Assembly: GCA_963727485.1 (NCBI GenBank)
Contig: CAVSGM010000011.1
Span: 480,001-544,000 of the forward strand
Length of the DNA stretch: 64,000 bases
Origin: an uncultured delta proteobacterium
GTDB taxonomy: Bacteria > Myxococcota > Myxococcia > SLRQ01
Direction of reading: 5' to 3'
Below, one piece after another: positions 10,224 to 26,333 of the stretch. The number at the start of each line of letters is the position of its first letter. The stretch's first letter is position 1. Under the pieces are notes generated by a model. It was not told the origin of the DNA, made no database searches, and worked only from the letters and a program-made list of their open reading frames with translations. Position numbers and translations under genes: made by a program.

Positions 10224-10985
10224 GCCTCACCGAGCCCCAAATCGAGCGGTACGGCCGCCGAATCCTCCTCGACGAGATCGGCGGGGCGGGTCAGGAGACC
10301 CTCCTCGGGGCCCGGGTGGGCGTGGTCGGCGCCGGGGGCCTGGGCTCGCCCGTGGTCCTCTACCTCGCCGCCGCCGGGGTGGGGCACCTGACGGTCCTCG
10401 ACCCGGACACGGTGGCCCTCTCCAACCTCCACCGGCAGAATCCTCCACACCACCGCCGACCTCGGGCGCCCCAAGGCGAGGCGCGCCGCCGAGGCGGTGG
10501 GCGCCCTCGACCCCGCGCTCCAGGTGGACGCCGTCGAGGGCCGCCTGGAGCCGGAGACCGCCGACGCCTTCTTCCGGGATCACGACCTGGTGGTCGACGG
10601 CTCGGACAACTTCGACACCCGCTTCCTCGCCAGCGACGCGGCGGTGCGCACCGGCACCCCCCTGGTCCACGGGGCGGTCCTGGGCTTCTCGGGGCAGGTG
10701 ATGGTCGTCGCCCCCGGCGAGGGCGGGTGCTACCGCTGCCTCTTCGAGGCCCCGCCGCCGGCGGGCGAGGTCCCGGCGTGCTCGGTGGCCGGGGTGGTCG
10801 GCGCCGCCTGCGGGGTCCTGGGCTCGGTCATGGCCCTCGAGGCAATCAAGCGCCTGGTGGGCGCCCCGGGCCTCGTCGGGCGGATGTGGACCTGGGACGG
10901 GCTGACCGGCCGGGTCCGCGTGGTCACGGTGCCCAGGAACCCGAGGTGCCCGAGCTGCGGCGCCCCCCGGGAGGCCCGCCGGTGA
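10220..10985 (+). CDS. MoeB/ThiF-family adenylyltransferase (E1-like), +1 frameshift at about 10440
   Basis: GAGGLGSP, SNLHRQ, DGSDNFDTR, CYRC and CPSC zinc motifs; no rhodanese domain. Confidence 0.9.
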
Positions 10986-11206
10986 CCGCCCCCCTCAATC
11001 TCCAGGGGGTCGCCTGCCCCCTCAACCTCGTGAAGGTCCGCCTCGCCCTCGAGCCCCTGGCCCCGGGCGAGGTGCTCACCGTTCTCCTCAATCCCGGGGA
11101 GGCCACCGACAACGTCCCCCGCGCGGTGGCCCAAGCCGGCCACGCGGTCCTTCAGACCACCCCGGGCGAGCCCACCCGCATCGTCATCCGCAAAGGAGGC
11201 CCCTGA
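10982..11206 (+). CDS. TusA/SirA-family sulfur carrier
   Basis: GTG start overlapping the moeB stop; LNLQGVACPLNLVKVRLALEPLAPGEVL...NVPRAV. Confidence 0.85.
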   Translation: MTAPLNLQGVACPLNLVKVRLALEPLAPGEVLTVLLNPGEATDNVPRAVAQAGHAVLQTTPGEPTRIVIRKGGP

Positions 11207-13059: not shown

Positions 13060-13971
13060 ATGGCCGAGAAGACGGGCTACACCATCTGGCTCACCGGCAT
13101 GAGCGGAGCCGGGAAGAGCACCCTGGCGGAGTACCTGGGCACACGACTCGCCGCCGCCGGGCGCGAGGTCGAGATCCTCGACGAGGAGTGGGTCCGCGAG
13201 GACCTCATGGGCGTCCTCGAGCCCACCCGCGAGGCGCGCGACCTCTACATGCGCCGCATCGGCTGGGTCGCCGAGCTCCTCACCCGCAACGGCGTCACCG
13301 CGATCGTCGCCGCCACCAGCCCCTACCGGGAGACCCGCGACGAGATCCGCAAGACGGTCGGCGAGTTCGTGGAGATCTTCTGCGACTGCCCGGTGGAGAC
13401 CCTCATCGAGCGCGACGTGAAGGGCCTCTACAAGAAGGCCCTGGCCGGCGACATCCCCAACTTCACCGGGATCACCGAGCCCTACGAGCCCCCGGCGTCG
13501 CCGGAGGTCACGGTGGACTCGGGGACCGAGACGGTGGAGGAGAGCGGCGAGAAGGTCATCGACTGCCTCGCCCGCCACGGCTACCTCGACCGGTCGGAGG
13601 CCCAGGTGGCGCTCTTCGGCAAGGGCAAGGGGCGCAAGGGCGCCCGCCGGAAGCCTGCCAAGGCAGCGAAGAAGCCGGCGCCGCCCGCGAAGAAGCCCGC
13701 CAAGAAGGCCCCCAAGAAGGCGGCGAAGAAGGTCGCCAAGAAGGTGGCGAAGAAGGCCCCCAAGAAGACGGCGAAGAAGGCGGCCAAGAAGACCACCAAG
13801 AAGGCCACCAAGAAGACCACCAAGAAGACCACCAAGAAGGCCACCGGCGCCAAGGCGAAGGGCGCCAAGAAGCCCGCCAAGCGTGCCGCCAGCCGCACCC
13901 GGACGGTGAGCCGGCCCGCGCGCCGCGCCGCCAAGGTCGCCAGCCGGCGGACGGCCAAGAAGCGCCGGTAG
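13060..13971 (+). CDS. cysC: adenylyl-sulfate (APS) kinase with Lys/Ala-rich histone-H1-like C-terminal tail
   Basis: IWLTGMSGAGKST, RRIGWVA, RDVKGLYKKALAG, FTGITEPYEPP; AGGAG-type RBS upstream. Confidence 0.9.
   Translation: MAEKTGYTIWLTGMSGAGKSTLAEYLGTRLAAAGREVEILDEEWVREDLMGVLEPTREARDLYMRRIGWVAELLTRNGVTAIVAATSPYRETRDEIRKTVGEFVEIFCDCPVETLIERDVKGLYKKALAGDIPNFTGITEPYEPPASPEVTVDSGTETVEESGEKVIDCLARHGYLDRSEAQVALFGKGKGRKGARRKPAKAAKKPAPPAKKPAKKAPKKAAKKVAKKVAKKAPKKTAKKAAKKTTKKATKKTTKKTTKKATGAKAKGAKKPAKRAASRTRTVSRPARRAAKVASRRTAKKRR
13621..13971 (+). repeat. low-complexity KK(A/P/T)x coding repeats
   Basis: Many tandem AAGAAG-containing 12-nt units encoding KKPA/KKAA/KKTT. Confidence 0.9.
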
Positions 13972-14006: not shown

Positions 14007-14853
14007 GTGCCCGACGCCCTCGACCTGAAGATCGCCCGCCTCCGGGAGGCCCTCCGGGACCTCGGCCGGGTGGTGGTGTGCTTCTCCGGGGGCGTGGACT
14101 CGAGCTACCTCCTCGCCGAGGCGGTCAGGCAGCTGGGGACCGACGCGGTGGCGCTGACGGCGGTGTCCCCGAGCCTCGCCCCCGAGGAGGCCGACGGGGC
14201 GCGGCGGCTCGCCGCCCGCCTCGGCGCCACCCACCGGATGGTCGAGAGCCACGAGCTCGACGACGCCCGCTACGCCTCCAACCCGGTCGACCGCTGCTAC
14301 TTCTGCAAGACCGAGGTCTACGGGGTGGCGGTGCGCGAGGCCGAGGCCCTACGCATCGGCCACGTCCTCGACGGCTTCAACGTCGACGACCGGGGCGACC
14401 ACCGGCCCGGGCGCAAGGCGGCCCGCGAGCGGGGGGTGCGCTCGCCGCTGGACGAGCTCGGCTTCCGCAAGGCCGACGTCCGGGAGGCGGCGCGGCGCCT
14501 CGGCCTCGAGGTGTGGGACAAGCCGGCGCTGGCCTGCCTCTCCAGCCGCTTCCCCTACGGGACCCGGATCACCCCCGAGCGGCTCACCCAGGTGGCCCGG
14601 TCGGAGCGGGTGCTCCGGGAGCTGGGGTTCCGGGTGTTCCGGGTGCGCTACCACGACGCCATGGCGCGCATCGAGGTGGCCCCGGACGAGCTGCCCCGGC
14701 TCATGGAGGTGGCCGCCGAGGTCACGGCGCGCCTCAAGGCCGAGGGGTTCACCTATGTCACGGTGGATCTCCGAGGGCTACCGCCAGGGGTCCCTCAACG
14801 AGGGGCTCGGGCGCGACGTGGTCGCGCGCATCGGCGGCGCCGTGGCGCGGTGA
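14007..14853 (+). CDS. larE: LarE-family ATP-dependent sulfur transferase, +1 frameshift at about 14771
   Basis: FSGGVDSS PP-loop, NPVDRCYFCK, DDRGDHRPG, WDKPALACLSSRFPYG, RVRYH; corrected end VDLEGYRQGSLNE. Confidence 0.88.
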
Positions 14854-14887: not shown

Positions 14888-14917
14888 TTGACCCCCGTGT
14901 CACCACCTCTCTACAAT
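14888..14917 (+). promoter_or_regulatory. sigma70-type promoter
   Basis: TTGACC - 18 nt - TACAAT, followed by a GGAGG RBS before ATG 14945. Confidence 0.6.
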
Positions 14918-14944
14918 GGCTCGTCTGGCCTCGGGAGGGGATCC

Positions 14945-17470
14945 ATGCGCGCGCTCCGTCGTCATCCCATCGTCGTGTCGTTGTTCCTGGTCGCCGTCGC
15001 CGGTGGCTGCGGTGGCACCCAGAGCTGCGGCTGCGGGGCCACGCCCCTGGCCCACGACCTCGCGCCCGCGGACAAGGTGGACGACGGGATCCAGATGGAG
15101 ATCTCCCAGTCGGGCTTCACCTACATCGAGCAGAACTTCTCGGGGATCGTGAACCAGTTCATGCCCGGGGGGCTCAACTTCGCCATCCCCAACCAGCCCA
15201 GCGACTGCAGCCGGTGGACGACCAGCATCCAGTACCGGATCTGCCACCAGGGCAGCCCCTGCAGCCTCTCCGCCGCCATCCACGACGTGGGGCTCGCGAC
15301 CAAGGCGCCGAACAAGCTCTCGCTTTCGGCCCAGGTGGACATCTCCGGGCCGGCCATCCCCATCCAGATCTGCGGCTACGCCACCAAGACGAGCTGCGAC
15401 ATCAAGGTGCACGTGTCCAACAAGCCGGTGAGCGCCGAAGTGATCTTCAGCCGCGATCCGGTCACCGACGCCCTGACCTTCGACATCCAGAACGTCAGCG
15501 TGAGCCTCCAGGGCAGCGACTTCAGCCTGGGCGGCGGCTTCGTCTGCAGCATCGGCGACATCGGGTTCATCAAGAACTTCATCGCCGGCCAGGCCAACAG
15601 CGCGATCAAGGGCCAGCTCAACTCCATGGTGAAGCAGCAGCTCGACGCCATGAGCTGCATGCCCTGCGACTACTTCGGCGACGGCTGCGCCACGGGCCTC
15701 AACCCCTCCGCCGGCGCCTACTGCAAGGCCGACGCGAGCGGCAGCAAGTGGTGCATGAACGGGTCGACCGACCCCAACTGCATCCACAAGCCGCTCGGCT
15801 TCACGGGCAACGTGGACCTGGGGTCGGCGTTGGCCTCGCTGATGCCCGGGGTGAAGGCGCCGGTGAACATGTACATGGGCCTGGGCCAGGCCCAGGACCC
15901 CACCGCCGACCCGCTGGTCCCCGCCGACGGCGGGCCGCTGGACCTGCGGATGATCACCGGCACCAGCGTCGACCAGCAGAGCCCCTGCGTCCCCGACGCC
16001 TCGTCGGCGCCGGACACCTCGGCGCCGCCGCGGATCGACTTCGCCACCGAGGCCCAGGGCACCCCGTACATGGTCGGCCTGGGGGTCTCGGACAACTTCC
16101 TCAACAAGACCTTCTCCGATCTCTACCGCTCCGGCGGGCTGTGCCTGGACATCGGGAGCAAGACCTCGAGCTTCCTCTCGACCGGCCTGTTCACCACCTT
16201 CCTCCCGAGCCTCAACTCGCTGACCGAGGGGAAGAACGCGCCGATGATCATCGCCCTGCGGCCCAAGGATTGGCCGACGGTGGACATCGGCAAGGGGACG
16301 TACCACACGGACCCCAGCGGCAAGATCGTCCTGGATGATCCGCTCCTGACCATCCACATGAAGGGCGTGCACCTCGACTTCTACGCCCAGGTCGACCAGC
16401 GCTACGTCAGGCTCTTCACCCTGACCATGGACATCGACCTGCCGCTCGGCCTCGACTTCACCGGGAACAACCAGGTCATCCCCATCCTCGGCGACCTCTC
16501 GTCGCTGATCTCCAACGTCCAGGCGTCGAACAGCGAGATCCTCGCCGAGGATCCCTCGAACCTGGCGCAGCTCATCCCCGCGCTCATCGGGCTCATCCAG
16601 CCGGCGCTCGCCGGGGCCCTCAAGCCCATCGCGCTGCCGGCGATCCAGGGCTTCGCCCTCAACGTGAACAAGATCGCGGGCATCGTGCCCATGACCCCGG
16701 CCACCACGCCGCCGACCTTCGCCCACCTGGGCATCTTCGCCGGCCTCGCCCTCAGCCCGCCGCCAGCGACCGGGAGCGTCCAGACCACCGCGCAGGTGGC
16801 GTCGGTGCAGGTGCCGGCCACCGCGAGCCTCGCCTGGGCGGGCCCCGTGCCGAACCCCTCGGTGGTCCTCGACGTGGGCACCTTCGACGCCAGCCGCACC
16901 GCCAACGGCGACGAGTGGCAGTACCGCATCGACGGCGGCTTCTGGTCGCCGTTCCAGCGCGTCCAGCAGCTGACGATCGCCTCGCCGCTCTTCCTCCTCC
17001 AAGGCCACCACCGCATCGACGTGCGCGGCCGGGAGATTGGCCACTACCAGACCCTGGACCAGACCCCGGCCTCGGTGACCGTGGACATCGACTGGACCGC
17101 GCCCACCGGCCGCCTCTCGGTGGATCCGTCCACCGGCGCGGTGCAGGTCTTCGGCCACGACCTGGTCACCCCGGCGGCGAAGCTCGAGTACGCCTTCTCG
17201 GTGGACGGCGGGCCCTTCACCGGCTTCTCCACCGACGCCACCACGACCCTGCCGGTGGACGCCCAGTCCCTGGTCGCCGAGGTGCGCGACGAGGCCGGGA
17301 ACACCACCCGGCTGACCTGGCAGGGGCCCAAGTGGGGCGCGAACGACGCGCCGGTTCCGCCGGCGGCCCAGGGCGCCGGCTGCGCCGTGGGCGGGCGCGG
17401 GACCACCGGCGGGATCCTGGGCCTGCTCGTCCTGGGGCTGGGGCTGGCGCTCGTCCGGCGGAGGCGATAG
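14945..17470 (+). CDS. large surface protein, BPI/LBP (TULIP)-like, with MYXO-CTERM-type tail
   Basis: Signal/lipobox VAVAGGC; GIQMEISQSGFTY and MVGLGVSDNFLN segments; Ig-like C-terminal part; GC-linker-TM-RRRR end. Confidence 0.75.
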   Translation: MRALRRHPIVVSLFLVAVAGGCGGTQSCGCGATPLAHDLAPADKVDDGIQMEISQSGFTYIEQNFSGIVNQFMPGGLNFAIPNQPSDCSRWTTSIQYRICHQGSPCSLSAAIHDVGLATKAPNKLSLSAQVDISGPAIPIQICGYATKTSCDIKVHVSNKPVSAEVIFSRDPVTDALTFDIQNVSVSLQGSDFSLGGGFVCSIGDIGFIKNFIAGQANSAIKGQLNSMVKQQLDAMSCMPCDYFGDGCATGLNPSAGAYCKADASGSKWCMNGSTDPNCIHKPLGFTGNVDLGSALASLMPGVKAPVNMYMGLGQAQDPTADPLVPADGGPLDLRMITGTSVDQQSPCVPDASSAPDTSAPPRIDFATEAQGTPYMVGLGVSDNFLNKTFSDLYRSGGLCLDIGSKTSSFLSTGLFTTFLPSLNSLTEGKNAPMIIALRPKDWPTVDIGKGTYHTDPSGKIVLDDPLLTIHMKGVHLDFYAQVDQRYVRLFTLTMDIDLPLGLDFTGNNQVIPILGDLSSLISNVQASNSEILAEDPSNLAQLIPALIGLIQPALAGALKPIALPAIQGFALNVNKIAGIVPMTPATTPPTFAHLGIFAGLALSPPPATGSVQTTAQVASVQVPATASLAWAGPVPNPSVVLDVGTFDASRTANGDEWQYRIDGGFWSPFQRVQQLTIASPLFLLQGHHRIDVRGREIGHYQTLDQTPASVTVDIDWTAPTGRLSVDPSTGAVQVFGHDLVTPAAKLEYAFSVDGGPFTGFSTDATTTLPVDAQSLVAEVRDEAGNTTRLTWQGPKWGANDAPVPPAAQGAGCAVGGRGTTGGILGLLVLGLGLALVRRRR

Positions 17471-17482
17471 GAACCGGGGCCG

Positions 17483-18022
17483 GTGCCCCGCCTTCCCCGC
17501 CTGACTCGCGTCGTCGTCCTCCTCGCCCTCGCCGGGGCCGTCCTGGCGCCTGGGGTGGCGCGAGCCCAGTACCGCTTCGCCACGGCGCCGAGGCTCGACC
17601 ACCGGGGGCAGTGGGGCGTGTCCCTCTCGCCGGTGGTCGGCTACCTCTCGGCCGCGGGAAAGACCGTGGACTCCGGGATCGCCTTCGGCGTCGACTTGGG
17701 GCTCAGCCACGGCCTCGCCGACCGGGGCGACGAGCTGACCCTCCACCTGCGGCCGCTTCTCGCCGGCGCGGTCAAAGGGGCCCTGGTGATGGCCGGGTAC
17801 CGGACCTACTTCGGCCTCGAGACCTGGAAGACCTACGCCGACCTGCAGATCCTGGTGCCGGTGGTGCCGGGGCCGGCGGTGGGGGCCAGGGTGGGGCTCG
17901 GGCTGATGTACGACCCGAGCCGGCGCATCGGCGTGAGCGTCTCCGGCGGGGCGATGGCCGCGGCGGGGGCGGTGTTCGTCACCGGGTTCGACGTGATGGC
18001 CGGGGTGCAGCTGCGGTTCTGA
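17483..18022 (+). CDS. small outer-membrane beta-barrel protein
   Basis: Signal peptide (VARA), alternating hydrophobic strands, C-terminal AGVQLRF. Confidence 0.7.
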   Translation: MPRLPRLTRVVVLLALAGAVLAPGVARAQYRFATAPRLDHRGQWGVSLSPVVGYLSAAGKTVDSGIAFGVDLGLSHGLADRGDELTLHLRPLLAGAVKGALVMAGYRTYFGLETWKTYADLQILVPVVPGPAVGARVGLGLMYDPSRRIGVSVSGGAMAAAGAVFVTGFDVMAGVQLRF

Positions 18023-18103: not shown

Positions 18104-18123
18104 CGGCGCGCCGCCGTTTTTTT
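18104..18123 (+). terminator. possible weak intrinsic terminator
   Basis: CGGCG-cgc-CGCCG followed by T7; overlaps a TTGACG -35-like box. Confidence 0.35.
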
Positions 18124-18186
18124 GACGCCTGCCTACCCGCTGCTACCGTGGAGGTGGATGTAGGACAAGGTCGCCCCGGAGGAACG

Positions 18187-19546: not shown

Positions 19547-20497
19547 ATGGCTGCGGAGCTCGGGACAGCGGACGACACACTGGGGATGGACCTGGGGACC
19601 AGCGGCGGGAGCTGGCTCTTCAAGGACCGGGATCTGCTCATGGGTCCGGTCCCCGCCCGGGTGCTGGTCGACAAGCTCTATGCGGGCGAGATCGGCCCCG
19701 ACACCCCCGTCGCCGACGAGCGCGACGAGACCTGGACGCGGCTTCGCGACGTGCCCTTCTTCACCGTGCACATCGCCCGGGCCCAGGCCCGGGGGCGGGT
19801 GCTCCAGGAGAAGCGTGACGCCGAGGGGAAGGCCCGCCGGGCCCGGAACCTCAAGATCGCCCTCGGCGCCGCGGCGGCGCTCATCCTGGTGGCGGCCGTG
19901 GCCACCGGCACCTGGTGGTGGGTGGTCCACCGGTCCCTGGCCGGCGACCACGCCAAGGAGCTCGCCAGCCTCTCCATCACCCTGAGCCCGCCCCAGATCT
20001 CCCTGTCCACCGCCGGCCACCACCGGGGCCCGGGGGGCCAGCTCCTCGACGTCGACGACGTCGCCAGCGCGCCCTCGCCACCGACCCACACCGCCCACCG
20101 GCCCGTGGCCCACCACACCAGCCACACCCACGCCGTCGCCCGCCACACCGCCTCCGCCGGCGGCGGGACCCCGGGCGCGCCGGCCCCGCCGTCCAACGGC
20201 GTCGGCCTCCACCGCAGCTACGACATGACCGCCATCAACGCCACCGTCCACCGGGTGGAGGCGACCCTCGTCCCCTGCGTGAAGCAGGAGGTGCAGCGCA
20301 GCGGCTTCCACGGGAAGATCCCCTTCGAGTTCGTGGTCAAGAACGACGGCCACGTGGGGCGCCTGTGGATCGACAACAAGGACCTCCGGGGGAGCCCCCT
20401 GAAGGCCTGCTTCGAGAAGACCATGGCCCGGTGGAAGTTCAAGGCCTTCCAGGGCGAGCGGCCGTCGGTCTCCCTCTCGTTCAACGTGGGCGGCTGA
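19547..20497 (+). CDS. GYF_2-like / TM / AgmX-PglI-like C-terminal domain protein
   Basis: WLFK...MGPV...W..LRDVP N-domain, one TM segment, C-domain LVPCVKQE...FVVKNDGHV...LKAC...WKF. Confidence 0.7.
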   Translation: MAAELGTADDTLGMDLGTSGGSWLFKDRDLLMGPVPARVLVDKLYAGEIGPDTPVADERDETWTRLRDVPFFTVHIARAQARGRVLQEKRDAEGKARRARNLKIALGAAAALILVAAVATGTWWWVVHRSLAGDHAKELASLSITLSPPQISLSTAGHHRGPGGQLLDVDDVASAPSPPTHTAHRPVAHHTSHTHAVARHTASAGGGTPGAPAPPSNGVGLHRSYDMTAINATVHRVEATLVPCVKQEVQRSGFHGKIPFEFVVKNDGHVGRLWIDNKDLRGSPLKACFEKTMARWKFKAFQGERPSVSLSFNVGG

Positions 20498-22586
20498 CCG
20501 CCCGCGCCGCCGCCCCCCTGGCCACCGCCCGCCGGCGCCGCGCCTCGGCGACGAGCATGAGGCCCGCGAGGGCCAGAAGGCCCGTCGCCCCCGGGGCACC
20601 GCTCGAGGCGCTGCACCCGCACCCGCCCGGGGACCCCCCACCGCCCCCGGGGCTCGGCTGCTCGGCGGCCAGCAGGGTCTTCACCGCGTCGTAGGCGTCG
20701 AGCTTCCCGTAGCCCCAGTGGGCGTTGGGCACCTTGCCGGTGAAGCTGTCGTGCTTCGCCGTGTCCTCGAGGATCTTCCGGGCCTCGGCGGGGGTGAGGT
20801 CGGGCTTCACCGCGAGCATCAGGGCCAGGGTCCCGGCCACGTGCGGCGACGCCATGGAGGTGCCGCGCATCACCATCACCCCGTCGTCGACCAGCTCCTT
20901 GCGGTCGAGGACCAGGCCGTTCTCCCCGAAGGGCGCGGCGATCCACTCCCCGGGGGCGGCGATCTCGGGCTTGAACCCGGTCCGCGCCGGGGCGGCGGTG
21001 GGCCCGACGCTGGAGAAGAACGCGATGTCCCCCACGGTGGTCGAGGGGTCGGTGATGGTCTTGCCGTCGATGTCGGGCCAGCTGTTCCGCGTCGCGAAGG
21101 CGGCGACGGTGATGACGTTGGGCGCGACCCCGGGCATGGCCACCGTCTCCCGGGCGTCGCCGGGGGCGAGGCCCTCGCCGGTGGCGGTGCCGAAGACCGA
21201 GGGCTGGGAGAGGAAGCCGCTCGCCGGCACCCAGGCGTTGAAGGCCCCATGGCCCGAGAGGCGCATCAGCCACCGATAGCCCCCGGCGTTCCCGGCGAAG
21301 GTGTCCGGGTCCGACGACGGGAGGATCACCAGGTTGGCCTCGCGCTTGCCGTTCTCGGGGTCCGGCGCCGACCAGGCAATCTGCACCTGGCCGAGGGCCT
21401 GGCCGCCCTCCTTCAGGGTCCCGGTGAAGCTCGCGGGCTCGGCCACGAACCCCGTCGAGGCCACCACCGCCCCCGAGGCGTCGACCAGGTCCAGGTCGAT
21501 CCGGGCGCTGGCCCCGGGGTCGAGCCAGAGGTCCACGTCCATCCCGTTGGAGCCGGTGCCGCCGTAGGGCTTCACCTCGGTGGTCGTCGGGGTCTCCTGG
21601 AGGGTGTAGCCCAGGTGGATGGGGGTCCAGCCCTCGTTCCCGGCGGCGACGGCGATGAGCCGCCCGGGGCCGGTGAGGGCGTCGATGGCCTGGCTCTCGA
21701 GGCTGGTGCCGTCGTGGGGCCCGTAGTGGCCGCCGAGGGACATGTTGATCACCACCGGCTCTCCGAGGCCCGCGGCCGTGTCCATGACCCACTTCACCGA
21801 GGCCCCGAGGTGCTGGAAGGTGAGGCTCTTGGCCACCACGTAGTCCACGTCCGGGGCGACCCCCTGGTACTGGCGGTCCCGGCCCCCGGCGGTGGCGGCG
21901 ACGTGGGTCCCGTGGCCCACCATGTCCACGTAGTCGCAGTTCCCGTCGAGGAGGTCGGCGCGGGTGCAGAGGTTCCCGCCGGTGTAGCCCTTGGGGGGCG
22001 TCCCCTTGGAGGCGACCTGGTCCCAGAGGGCCTGGACCCGGGTCTTCCCGTCGTCCCCGGCGAAGGTCTTGATCCGGTAGTCGATCCCCGTGTCCACCAG
22101 GCCCAGGACGACGCCCTTGCCGTTCACGGCCCGGGGGAGCCCGGTGCCCTTCTGGACCCGGTCGGCGCCGATGGCGGGGACGCTCTTGTCCAGGAGCCGC
22201 CGGTGGCCGAGGTCCGCCTCGGCGCGCACCAGGGTCGGGTCCACCGCCAGCTCGGCGAGGTGGGCCAGGGGCACCCGGGCGTCGAGGAGGCGCTGGCCCA
22301 GGGGCACCGCCCAGCCCCCGAGGGCCTTCACCCGGGCCACCATCGCCGGGACCGCCGCCGGGGAGGCCACCCGCAGGTAGCAGGACACCTGGTAGGTGGG
22401 CCGCAGCTTGCCGGCGAAGGCCGGGGGAAACGCCGCCTCGCCCCGGCCCTGGTAGCTCTGGAGGAGCCGGGTGAGGTGGAGGCCCAGGACCCCGGGCGCG
22501 GGGGCCTGCGGGGGCGGCGTGCCCCCGCCCGCGGGGAGGGCGGCGAGGAGGAGCGAGAGGGTCAGGGCGTGCACCATGGCGGGCAT
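20481..22586 (-). CDS. S8 subtilisin-like serine peptidase with MYXO-CTERM-type tail
   Basis: DTGID, HGTHVA, AAGN, GTSMASPHVAG, WGYGKLD; GCGCS-TM-RRRR. Confidence 0.92.
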   Translation of the reverse strand: MPAMVHALTLSLLLAALPAGGGTPPPQAPAPGVLGLHLTRLLQSYQGRGEAAFPPAFAGKLRPTYQVSCYLRVASPAAVPAMVARVKALGGWAVPLGQRLLDARVPLAHLAELAVDPTLVRAEADLGHRRLLDKSVPAIGADRVQKGTGLPRAVNGKGVVLGLVDTGIDYRIKTFAGDDGKTRVQALWDQVASKGTPPKGYTGGNLCTRADLLDGNCDYVDMVGHGTHVAATAGGRDRQYQGVAPDVDYVVAKSLTFQHLGASVKWVMDTAAGLGEPVVINMSLGGHYGPHDGTSLESQAIDALTGPGRLIAVAAGNEGWTPIHLGYTLQETPTTTEVKPYGGTGSNGMDVDLWLDPGASARIDLDLVDASGAVVASTGFVAEPASFTGTLKEGGQALGQVQIAWSAPDPENGKREANLVILPSSDPDTFAGNAGGYRWLMRLSGHGAFNAWVPASGFLSQPSVFGTATGEGLAPGDARETVAMPGVAPNVITVAAFATRNSWPDIDGKTITDPSTTVGDIAFFSSVGPTAAPARTGFKPEIAAPGEWIAAPFGENGLVLDRKELVDDGVMVMRGTSMASPHVAGTLALMLAVKPDLTPAEARKILEDTAKHDSFTGKVPNAHWGYGKLDAYDAVKTLLAAEQPSPGGGGGSPGGCGCSASSGAPGATGLLALAGLMLVAEARRRRAVARGAAARAVSRPR

Positions 22587-22612: not shown

Positions 22613-23278
22613 ATGGATGGGGAGAAGACCAAGGCGGTGGCGGCAATCGAGGCCCAGATGGCCCAGGTCCCCCCGGGGTCCTACCGGCACCAGGTGCTGG
22701 AGGTGGCCCGGGACTTCAAGAACGCCTGGGTGTCCCTGGGCGCCCACCTCACCAAGGTCTCGAGTGGCGCCCTCTACAAGGAGTGGGGCTACGACGACTT
22801 CGAGACCTACTGCCAGCGCGAGCTGCACATCCGCAAGGCCACCGCCCACAAGCTCACGGCGACCTACGGGTTCATGCAGCGCCACGAGCCCCGGCTCCTC
22901 GAGCGCGCCGAGGCCGACCCGGTGGTCCGGGCCCAGGTCCCCGCCTTCGAGGTGGTGCAGGTCCTCTCCCGGGCCGAGGAGCGGGGGCAGATTGGGGAGG
23001 CCGAGTACCGGGAGGTCCGGGACCGGGTCTTCGAGGGGCCGCGTCCCCCGGCGCCCTCGACCCTGGCCCGGGCAATCAACGGCAAGTGGCCGGCGCCGCC
23101 CCCGCCCGAGCCCGACCAGGGGGTGCGGGTGCGCCAGCTCTCTGCCGCAGCGCGTCGTCTGGCCGACGGTGCCCGGCGGTCCGACGCGGTCCCCCAGGCG
23201 GTCAAGGACCGGGCGGAGGCCCTCGCCGAGGACTTCGTCGCCCTCCTCGAGGCCGGGGCTTGGCGGGACGCCGGGTGA
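22613..23278 (+). CDS. hypothetical protein, possible HTH-like domain
   Basis: Clean ORF; LYKEWGYDDFETYCQRELHIRKATAHKL motif. Confidence 0.75.
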   Translation: MDGEKTKAVAAIEAQMAQVPPGSYRHQVLEVARDFKNAWVSLGAHLTKVSSGALYKEWGYDDFETYCQRELHIRKATAHKLTATYGFMQRHEPRLLERAEADPVVRAQVPAFEVVQVLSRAEERGQIGEAEYREVRDRVFEGPRPPAPSTLARAINGKWPAPPPPEPDQGVRVRQLSAAARRLADGARRSDAVPQAVKDRAEALAEDFVALLEAGAWRDAG

Positions 23279-24641: not shown

Positions 24642-24814
24642 CCGCCGGGGGCGGCTCGCCTCCCGTCGCCCGGCTACGCCACGGGTGCTCGCAGGAATGC
24701 TTCAGGCGCCCAGTGGTACGGAGCCTTGGGGCGCGTTTCTCTGGTGCGGGATCAAACGGGCACGCCGAAATCCGCCCGAGTGCCCCCACCGCGATGGAGC
24801 GCGCCGCCGGCCGG

Positions 24815-26333
24815 CTACGTCTCCCGCACCCGCACCGTCGTCTTCATCTCGCGGCCGGAGAGCGGGTCCCGGGCGCTCATGGTGAGGATCCCCTCGATGT
24901 TGATGTCGAAGGTGACCTCCACCTTGGCCTCGCCCTTGGGGCCGGACTGGATGCCCTCGAAGGTGAAGTCTCCGAGCAGCTCGTTGTCGACCACCAGCTC
25001 GGCGTCGCCCTGGAAGATGCGCATCGCCAGCTCGGTCTGACCGTCGAAGCTGGTGGTGCCGGTCAGGGCCTTGGCGTTGGGGATGGGGGCGTTGCGGTCG
25101 AAGACCTTGTGGAACTTCCCGCCCGCCATCTCCAGGCCGATGGCCATGGGGATGACGTCCAGGAGCTGGATGCGCAGGTTGGTGTCGTCGGTGAGGCTGT
25201 GGCCGTAGAGGGCGGCGCCGATGGCCACGGCCTCGTCGGGGTGGACGGCCTTGGAGGGCGCCTTGCCGAAGTACTCGGTGAGTCGATCGTGGATGATCGG
25301 CATCCGGGACTGGCCGCCGACGAGCATCACCTCGTCGAGCTCGCCCGGCTCGAGGCCCGCGTCGGCGAGGACCTCGTCGATCTTGGCGATGGTCCGGTCG
25401 ACCAGGGGGTCGGTGAGCGCCTGGAAGAGCTCCCGGGTGATGGTGAGGTCGATGTTGAGGGGCATCCCCTGGGGGGTCATGGTGATGAAGGGGACGTTGA
25501 AGGGCACCGACTCCCGGCTGGAGAGGTCGATCTTGGACGCGCTCGGCCAGATCCTTGATGCGCTGCATCGCCACCGGGTCGTTGGAGAGGTCGACGGCGT
25601 GCTTCCCGGCGAAGTCCCCGAGGACGTAGTGGATGAGGGCGTTGTCGAAGTCGAGGCCGCCGAGGAAGATGTCGCCGCCGGTGGCCTTCACCTCGAACAC
25701 CCGGTCGCGGATCTCGATGACCGAGACGTCGAAGGTGCCCCCGCCGAGGTCGTAGATGAGGACCTTCTCGTTGAGCGATCGGCCCACGCCGTAGGCCAGG
25801 GCCGCGCTGGTGGGCTCGTTGATGATCCGCACCACCTCGAGATCGATGAGCTTGCCCGCCTCCTTGACCGCCTGGCGCTGCTTGTCGGTGAAGTAGGCGG
25901 GGACGGTGACCACCGCCCGGCTGACGGGCTCGCCGAGGTGGTCCGAGGCCACGCCGCGGACCTTGGAGAGGATCTTGGCGGCGATCTCCGACATCCGGAA
26001 GTCCTTGCCGGCGATCTGGATCAGCACCTCGTGCTTCACGTCGGCGGCCTTCATCTCGTAGGCCACCACGTCCTTCATGGTGTCCACCACGTCGGACTTG
26101 TAGTTCCGGCCGATGAGGCGCTTGCTGGCGTAGACGGTGTTCCGGGGGTTGAGCTGCCACTGGCGCTTGGCCTCGTGGCCCACCAGCTCGTTGCCCTTGT
26201 CGTCCACGGCGAAGATCGAGGGAATGGTGCTGGACCCGTCCTTGTAGGGAACGAGGTGCACCTTCCCCTCGTCGTCGGTGTAGGCGGCGCAGGAGTTCGT
26301 GGTCCCCAGGTCGATTCCGATGATTCGGCTCAT
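24815..26333 (-). CDS. Hsp70/DnaK-like protein lacking the C-terminal lid, +1 frameshift at about 25535
   Basis: [53 protein letters not shown]. Confidence 0.9.

Follow-up and report, generated by a model that had tools for sequence, protein, structure and literature searches.

A 64,000-nucleotide stretch of DNA from an uncultured member of the Myxococcota (GenBank assembly GCA_963727485.1, contig CAVSGM010000011.1, positions 480,001–544,000, forward strand; hereafter the window) carries a gene for an 841-residue lipoprotein with the double-TULIP fold of human BPI, referred to here as the TULIP protein. We analyzed this protein together with its immediate neighbor, a small outer-membrane β-barrel, and with a second, propeller-like lipoprotein that is encoded outside the window and co-occurs with it across the phylum. 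The features of the locus, in window coordinates, are:

14010–14853, plus strand: larE-family gene, a conserved upstream neighbor of the TULIP gene; its frame shifts near 14775
14888–14917, plus strand: promoter-like site of the sigma-70 type, TTGACC-18-TACAAT (consensus match only)
14934–14938, plus strand: ribosome-binding site GGAGG (sequence reading)
14945–17470, plus strand: TULIP gene, encoding the 841-residue BPI-like double-TULIP lipoprotein (open reading frame, family profile, model and structure match)
14945–15010, plus strand: lipoprotein signal peptide to Cys22, presumably lipidated, with further Cys at 28 and 30
15074–15655, plus strand: N-terminal TULIP domain, residues 44–237, net charge −3 (profile, model)
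15656–15793, plus strand: six-cysteine insert, residues 238–283, not in BPI (profile alignment, conservation)
15794–16063, plus strand: central sheet and linker, residues 284–373 (model; Cys348 in 90 of 91 relatives)
16064–16756, plus strand: C-terminal TULIP domain, residues 374–604, net charge −5 (Pfam trace, profile, model)
16772–17338, plus strand: two Ig/FnIII-like stalk domains, residues 610–718 and 719–798 (structure comparison)
17372–17467, plus strand: MYXO-CTERM-like sorting tail with Cys813, hydrophobic helix and Arg cluster (TIGR03901, below cut-off)
17483–18022, plus strand: barrel gene with a GTG start, encoding a 179-residue signal-peptide protein modeled as an 8-stranded outer-membrane β-barrel (NspA/OprF/OmpW-like)
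18104–18124, plus strand: intrinsic-terminator-like hairpin (18104–18116) with T run, closing the two-gene unit; weak on its own

The barrel reading frame begins 12 nt after the TULIP stop codon, as a first-pass annotation of this DNA had noted, and the two genes are likely co-transcribed. That annotation had also given the TULIP gene its own promoter, and the site at 14888–14917 agrees with this: one sigma-70-like match is found where 0.1 is expected, the TTGACC-18-TACAAT geometry recurs upstream of three close relatives of the gene, and a promoter score of at least 9/12 is reached in 11 of 65 upstream regions of TULIP relatives versus 0 of 65 coding controls. Terminator-like hairpins in the region number two, with 0.8 expected.

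Clustering of relatives at 50% identity gave 777, of which the best 150 were taken; 22 were added from an indexed search, and 168 proteins were used. Two family profiles, built from 124 and 91 of these, match human BPI (1bp1) in both domains (E = 3.5e-7 and 2.4e-7, respectively), with LBP next (E = 0.08 and 0.04). Profile and 1bp1 align in two ordered stretches, profile 76–265 with BPI 4–176 and profile 364–451 with BPI 239–325, and the hand alignments by which the first-pass annotation had placed BPI-like segments, in order, at both domain starts lie inside these stretches. With an AlphaFold model of the TULIP protein (22 sequences; predicted local distance difference test score, pLDDT, 80.6), Foldseek ranks 1–5 are BPI, BPI, LBP, LBP and CETP (E from 2.6e-20 to 9.7e-15). 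Model residues 45–604 cover 1bp1 whole (Z-score 16.2, root-mean-square deviation (rmsd) 5.2, 425 residues aligned; Foldseek E = 5.4e-20), and residues 610–798 match tandem Ig/FnIII domains with Z-scores of about 8. The profile search for the BPI superfamily and the structural search for two TULIP barrels had both been proposed as checks, and both come out in favor of the BPI assignment.

Searches with single sequences give little. The TULIP protein has no significant match in the PDB, and its sole Pfam match is PF02886 at residues 357–425 (E = 0.15; 11.9 bits versus a cut-off of 23). Among 51 relatives scanned, PF02886 appears in eight at E up to 0.05 and in none over the cut-off; in the same Pfam scan, the TULIP protein and all 51 relatives gave no match to PF01273 or to DUF4403. 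The N- and C-domain profiles of the family show no significant similarity to each other (probability 0.6%), and that of BPI's own two domains is likewise reported as weak in the accessible text of PMC6791001. We regard a BPI/CETP-type double-TULIP fold as virtually certain: the protein belongs to the BPI double-TULIP fold superfamily, and is neither BPI proper, nor a DUF4403 protein, nor part of the TipA/TipB system discussed below. Most of the sheet strands scored alternate strictly between conserved hydrophobic and polar columns, leaving one conserved hydrophobic face. This pattern fits a lipid-lined tube, since such a tube needs it, and we consider lipid binding by the TULIP protein very probable.

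The lipobox claimed for the 841-residue protein stands: a basic n-region and a hydrophobic h-region lead to Cys22, which is invariant among the 12 closest relatives aligned, and a loose lipobox pattern is found in 146 of 154 full-length relatives (at least three Cys lie within the first 60 residues in 122 of the 154). The Cys-rich insert between the domains and the Ig-like domains after them were also correctly placed, at residues 238–283 and 610–798, and each of the six insert Cys is kept in 82–85 of 91 relatives. Of what we take to be the conserved N-domain disulfide of BPI, Cys135–Cys175, the second Cys falls on insert Cys238 in the profile alignment and the first has no Cys opposite, in a region that aligns weakly.

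The claim of a MYXO-CTERM-type tail is supported by the motif and by its recurrence, as judged by pattern, in 65 of the 67 relatives of the same two-Ig architecture, with a TIGR03901 score of 17.1 bits in the TULIP protein, under the 20-bit cut-off. The host genome contains 28 MYXO-CTERM tail matches and a myxosortase core (NF040914, 116.8 bits, over cut-off; model number from the accessible part of 10.1101/2023.06.07.544157); this myxosortase and the labels of the relatives support the myxobacterial-type (Myxococcota) host that had been supposed. NCBIfam models of M. xanthus MYXO-CTERM families do not match the TULIP protein beyond the tail. The 154 full-length relatives divide into 67 with two Ig domains, 25 with one, 8 with none and 54 with a long extension; one relative, P0160, has 1776 residues and a proprotein-convertase P domain. 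Surface display of the TULIP protein is probable. Myxobacterial surface receptors typically carry MYXO-CTERM, Cys-rich and Ig modules, and the loops at the N-terminal tip vary greatly in length and sequence, so that one might think of a TraA-like pair of adhesins or contact receptors in which the TULIP fold is a rod that carries hardly any lipid, if any; the strongly conserved, lumen-type hydrophobic alternation in both domains argues against such a role, which we consider very unlikely.

BPI's neutralization of LPS (lipopolysaccharide) has been put down to an N-terminal tip that is highly cationic (PMC8836039, accessible text). The N-domain of the TULIP protein has a net charge of −3 and the mature chain one of −27. 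Over 91 relatives the N-domain has a median net charge of −10, with six above zero and one at +5 or more; the two N-tip loops, with medians of −2.5 and 0, never reach +5, and are acidic or neutral, often with exposed hydrophobic residues. A cationic LPS-binding tip was rejected on account of this acidic N-domain. The first-pass annotation had proposed recognition of prey LPS; in a BPI/LBP-like form this would be a sensor or permeabilizer aimed at Gram-negative prey. BPI is indeed the top match in both sequence and structure, ahead of CETP; TipA of Bdellovibrio binds and destabilizes bilayers (10.1101/2025.09.09.675085, accessible text); and an acidic protein could still accept lipid A acyl chains, perhaps via cation bridges. 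Given the missing cationic tip, and the many large, near-complete genomes of the class in which no TULIP gene was found, we nevertheless hold an LPS sensor to be very unlikely. The broader proposal of lipid harvest or exchange survives as the likeliest general role, shorn of LPS capture; by inference, the TULIP protein acts less like BPI and more like a lipid-transfer member of the superfamily.

The long relatives point to a partner. Behind the Ig domains, 44 of the 54 continue with an internal CTERM (Cys, hydrophobic helix, Arg cluster), a second hydrophobic helix with lipobox, and a Cys-rich repeat domain; proteins with this junction include P0011, P0045 and P0062, and it also occurs at locus L199. 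TIGR03901 exceeds its cut-off at the internal site in two of three long proteins scanned (26.9 and 22.5 bits). The NCBIfam model NF058595, 'lipo-invert', gives weak matches across the CTERM-lipobox junction. A profile of the extra domain finds one strong stand-alone gene in the host genome (E = 2.3e-131), on the minus strand outside the window and about 195 kb from the TULIP gene (G000:C11:690415–692400; L135:6416–8401). Its product is a lipoprotein of 661 residues with Cys-rich repeats and five blade-like motifs; from these five repeated motifs and weak BNR_4 matches we infer a propeller fold. Both lipoproteins have an extra Cys, of the Cys-x-Cys type, right after the lipobox Cys (window 14945–15040 for the TULIP protein), which resembles the MYXO-CTERM signature.

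We screened 355 genomes of the phylum, for TULIP at a threshold of 1e-25 with a stricter first look, so that the TULIP counts are a floor. TULIP is present in at least 132 genomes, often in two copies, and the C-terminal 448 residues of the propeller protein have a match in 131: both occur in 128 genomes, TULIP only in four (two of them with diverged copies in genus g16), propeller only in three and neither in 220, a Jaccard index of 0.95. The match persists inside groups: both genes are carried by the same 3 of 10 genomes in g23 and the same 7 of 10 in f5, and likewise by 15 of 17 (f11) and 11 of 17 (f17). Twenty wide propeller loci comprise one with a fusion to TULIP, two with a tail-less TULIP in line and 17 on their own; most of the co-occurrence thus involves separate genes. 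Fusion, adjacency and co-occurrence agree, and we are confident that the TULIP protein is linked to the propeller protein; the latter, and not the adjacent barrel, is the likely working partner. The correlation between TULIP and propeller distance matrices (Spearman 0.64, 20 genomes) was not counted as co-evolution, because kin share distances. Clustering the neighbors of 44 + 30 and then 40 loci revealed no third conserved component.

Several observations accompany the propeller loci. At loci L197 and L200, genes for two propeller-like lipoproteins and for a short TULIP without a tail lie in line. In genus g16 (G019:C13, L009/L025; G279) the TULIP is highly diverged and no propeller partner was found; it is possibly decaying or separately acquired. 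In the host, FHA-domain and Tad-like genes lie 3.5 kb from the propeller gene (G000:C11:682801–686871), an arrangement reminiscent of the Kil system; from their motifs we take some of them to be CpaB, TadB and TadC look-alikes. Such Tad-like/FHA genes are not conserved beside the other propeller genes in the wide loci.

TULIP was not found in families f3 (0/59), f4 (0/5) and f22 (0/14) or genera g13 (0/21) and g36 (0/16), and a sensitive re-search of five genomes (1–2 contigs, 100% completeness) gave tail matches only in all five. A full-length propeller orthologue was likewise not found in four of these five genomes and in G019, where only single-blade matches appeared. We rejected a diverged TULIP hidden in the TULIP-less genomes, on the strength of the tail-only re-search and of 20 of 20 barrel loci with none upstream of the barrel (HMMER filters off). 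These gaps bear on whether the TULIP-propeller pair might, at the outer membrane or in the periplasm, simply move or remove lipids of the cell itself, none being supplied from outside. Such housekeeping would suit a host that synthesizes fatty acids and lipid A for itself, the occurrence of tail-less lipoprotein forms, and a stable position behind larE across several classes that, with trees roughly tracking families, suggests old vertical inheritance. The absence of both genes from whole groups (f3, g13 and g36 above) is hard to fit to a core envelope job, however, and an outward location is suggested by the conserved disulfide-type Cys, the Ig stalk and the MYXO-CTERM; we consider housekeeping unlikely.

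The distribution does not bear out a link to predation either, as the system was not found in several genera of large, near-complete genomes. All 44 named loci are metagenome-assembled, with labels such as Myxococcota, Myxococcales, Archangium sp. and older group names, so a tractable orthologue for the proposed knockout may not exist among the usual strains; a single-protein scan of the named genomes gave no match. A paper on non-predatory spring Myxococcota covers, in its accessible part, other assemblies (10.1101/2021.07.06.451402).

The adjacent barrel was the partner suggested in the first-pass annotation. Its 8-stranded model (pLDDT 94) matches NspA with a Z-score of 18.0 (rmsd 1.9, 134 residues aligned), OprF-N with 17.9 and OmpW with 16.9; with the signal peptide and terminal aromatic residue, this marks it as an outer-membrane barrel. 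NspA, OprF-N, OmpW, OmpA and PagL all share its fold, with Z-scores (15.6–18.0) too close to one another to assign a function, and no family matches it over cut-off. The family has invariant His, Arg, Thr, Gln and Arg residues and is possibly an enzyme or a small channel. Single-copy and almost confined to the class of the host, it occurs in 196 of the 355 genomes.

We weighed the barrel as a functional partner, serving as anchor or outer-membrane lipid entry at least for the two-Ig members of this class, if not exclusively. In its favor are the 12-nt gap, with a single promoter before the pair and a single terminator after it, and the neighborhoods of 73 distinct TULIP loci, a sample that favors top-scoring, same-class matches and from which five were dropped (less than 700 bp downstream): of the remaining 68, 46 have the barrel at most 600 bp downstream, two more have it at about 1.3 kb and 20 have none, versus 0 of 20 tail-only control loci with a barrel. 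It even adjoins the tail-less TULIP at locus L007. Against a dedicated partnership, 68 genomes have both genes, 128 a barrel without detected TULIP and 64 a TULIP without barrel match (Jaccard index 0.26), and no one-Ig TULIP locus (0/11) has a barrel. Twenty barrel loci were chosen from genomes without a TULIP match (one has a diverged TULIP elsewhere): none has TULIP upstream, and 19 of 20 keep the order cysC-larE-barrel, the same chromosomal slot with TULIP missing. Some barrels of these genomes have drifted at His12 (kept in 14/20) and Arg150 (13/20), which speaks for a partnership, whereas Glu56, Arg79, Gly106 and Gly112 are kept in 20/20, which speaks against one. An obligate partnership was demoted on the Jaccard index and the cysC-larE-barrel order, and we think even a non-exclusive one doubtful; the barrel is probably a syntenic neighbor. 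At 4 of 20 wider loci that all belong to other classes, larE precedes TULIP, and the simplest history is that of an old larE-TULIP pair, behind which a barrel was added in one class and from which TULIP was later lost, the barrels left behind having most core residues intact.

With the propeller protein as the preferred partner, we propose the following mechanism. Both lipoproteins would be exported and lipidated, myxosortase would clip the MYXO-CTERM tail, and the type II system would display the TULIP protein, a route shown for other proteins such as TraA (PMC11980579, accessible text). The model places both chain ends at the central sheet, and two anchors may thus grip the tube at its waist and leave the tips free to dock. 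The acidic tube could then dock end-on to a membrane and take acyl chains into its lumen, delivering lipid to the cell's own outer membrane or drawing it from there, in the manner of PLTP/CETP or Bdellovibrio TipA rather than bactericidal BPI. The propeller protein may act as docking receptor or target selector, or as an opener of the tube, as TipB is for TipA. Where the two are fused, a membrane hairpin would arise from the CTERM helix, the Arg cluster and the second signal helix and be cut to give two anchored proteins at 1:1; judged from sequence, the internal CTERM and second lipobox make the fused relatives candidates for a bacterial polyprotein that two membrane proteases cut. The least certain step is which membrane (prey, vesicles, debris or kin) acts as donor.

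We put the chance that this is a two-lipoprotein surface lipid-transfer module of Myxococcota at about even, and are similarly divided on whether the lipid comes from outside the cell. The full proposal, an undescribed machine of a BPI-like tube with two lipid anchors and a Cys-rich propeller receptor or opener, two lipoproteins that strip or exchange foreign-membrane lipids at the surface of many uncultured Myxococcota and are often made as one polyprotein cut by myxosortase and lipoprotein signal peptidase, is tentative, and we would sooner expect it to fail in some part than to hold throughout. The following weigh against the module. The tail of the TULIP protein (residues 810–841) matches TIGR03901 at E = 0.0053, below cut-off, and 8 of 154 relatives have no Ig-CTERM tail (contig ends may clip some), so display by the tail is not universal. 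The propeller protein has no Pfam or PDB match, and BNR_4 matches are weak and found in 4 of 38 relatives. The genomes are related and do not amount to 355 independent tests, shared loss with lifestyle could also produce the co-occurrence, and the barrel is the sole control gene. Finally, the host encodes fabD, fabZ, accA and lpxC and need not scavenge lipid; lipid auxotrophy as the reason for the system was rejected for this host on the same genes.

Compared with human BPI, LBP and CETP (PF01273 and PF02886; 1bp1, 1ewf, 4m4d, 2obd), the TULIP protein likewise arranges two TULIP domains about a central sheet, in one chain and in the same order. It adds the lipobox, six-Cys insert, two Ig domains and sorting tail, is acidic without the cationic tip, and falls, like 51 of 51 relatives, below the Pfam cut-offs. 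Full-length BPI-like double TULIPs have been described in bacteria, including DUF4403 and others (PMC6791001) and A0A2D5ZNG0 (PMC10584675), with neither MYXO-CTERM nor propeller partner in the accessible text of these papers. Bdellovibrio TipA, which its authors call the first such protein characterized in that organism, is likewise a bacterial BPI-like double TULIP, with a reported Z-score to BPI of 16.5 (16.2 here). According to the accessible text of the preprint (10.1101/2025.09.09.675085), TipA is lipid-filled, opened by the adaptor TipB, secreted into prey and dimeric, whereas the TULIP protein is predicted to be tethered. TipB is a small C2-like sandwich from the same operon; the gene adjacent to TULIP encodes instead an 8-stranded membrane barrel, and the proposed partner is the 661-residue Cys-rich propeller-like lipoprotein, usually unlinked and sometimes fused. 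TipA is not among the PDB matches of the TULIP profile or model searches, and the string 'myxo' is absent from the main text of PMC6791001 and of the TipA preprint.

Substrates of the myxosortase MrtX such as TraA (PMC11980579, accessible text) share the Cys-helix-Arg tail. The TULIP protein differs in also having a lipobox, and is thus possibly anchored at both ends, and in its long relatives the tail lies inside the chain, where it also serves as the beginning of a second lipoprotein signal. A literature search that left figures, supplements and most subscription papers outside its scope returned no paper on the TULIP family or on a CTERM-lipobox polyprotein. A further lead comes from a mostly Bacteroidota Atlas cluster (score 0.87), in which 57% of the members have PF02886.

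Little is established about how predatory and surface-living bacteria obtain lipids from other cells. The TULIP family is large (777 clusters at 50% identity), occurs in at least 132 of 355 genomes of the phylum, is missed by Pfam, and has a kinship to animal BPI visible at the sequence level. That bacteria have BPI-like proteins is already published; of more interest are the partner and the polyprotein junction, which supply a concrete partner and a concrete processing hypothesis. If true, the helical-hairpin polyprotein would add a new mode to bacterial surface-protein biogenesis, and the pair would be a bacterial counterpart of the LBP/PLTP hand-off.

Around the two-gene unit, the frame change of the larE-family gene near 14775 falls in a G run. 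Two further genes, which we take from their motifs to be ThiF-like (near 10230–10990) and DnaK-like (near 24800–26300), also look frameshifted, and the three together suggest assembly indels. At 13060–13971 lies an adenylyl-sulfate kinase whose long C-terminal tail, histone-like and rich in Lys and Ala, is also found in relatives. Downstream of the barrel, a protein with GYF_2 and AgmX/PglI C-terminal domains (19547–20497) and a 221-residue protein with no family match (22613–23278) recur in about half of the 44 named loci; inside this conserved block, on the minus strand at 20481–22586, sits a subtilase (PF00082) whose MYXO-CTERM match is over the cut-off.

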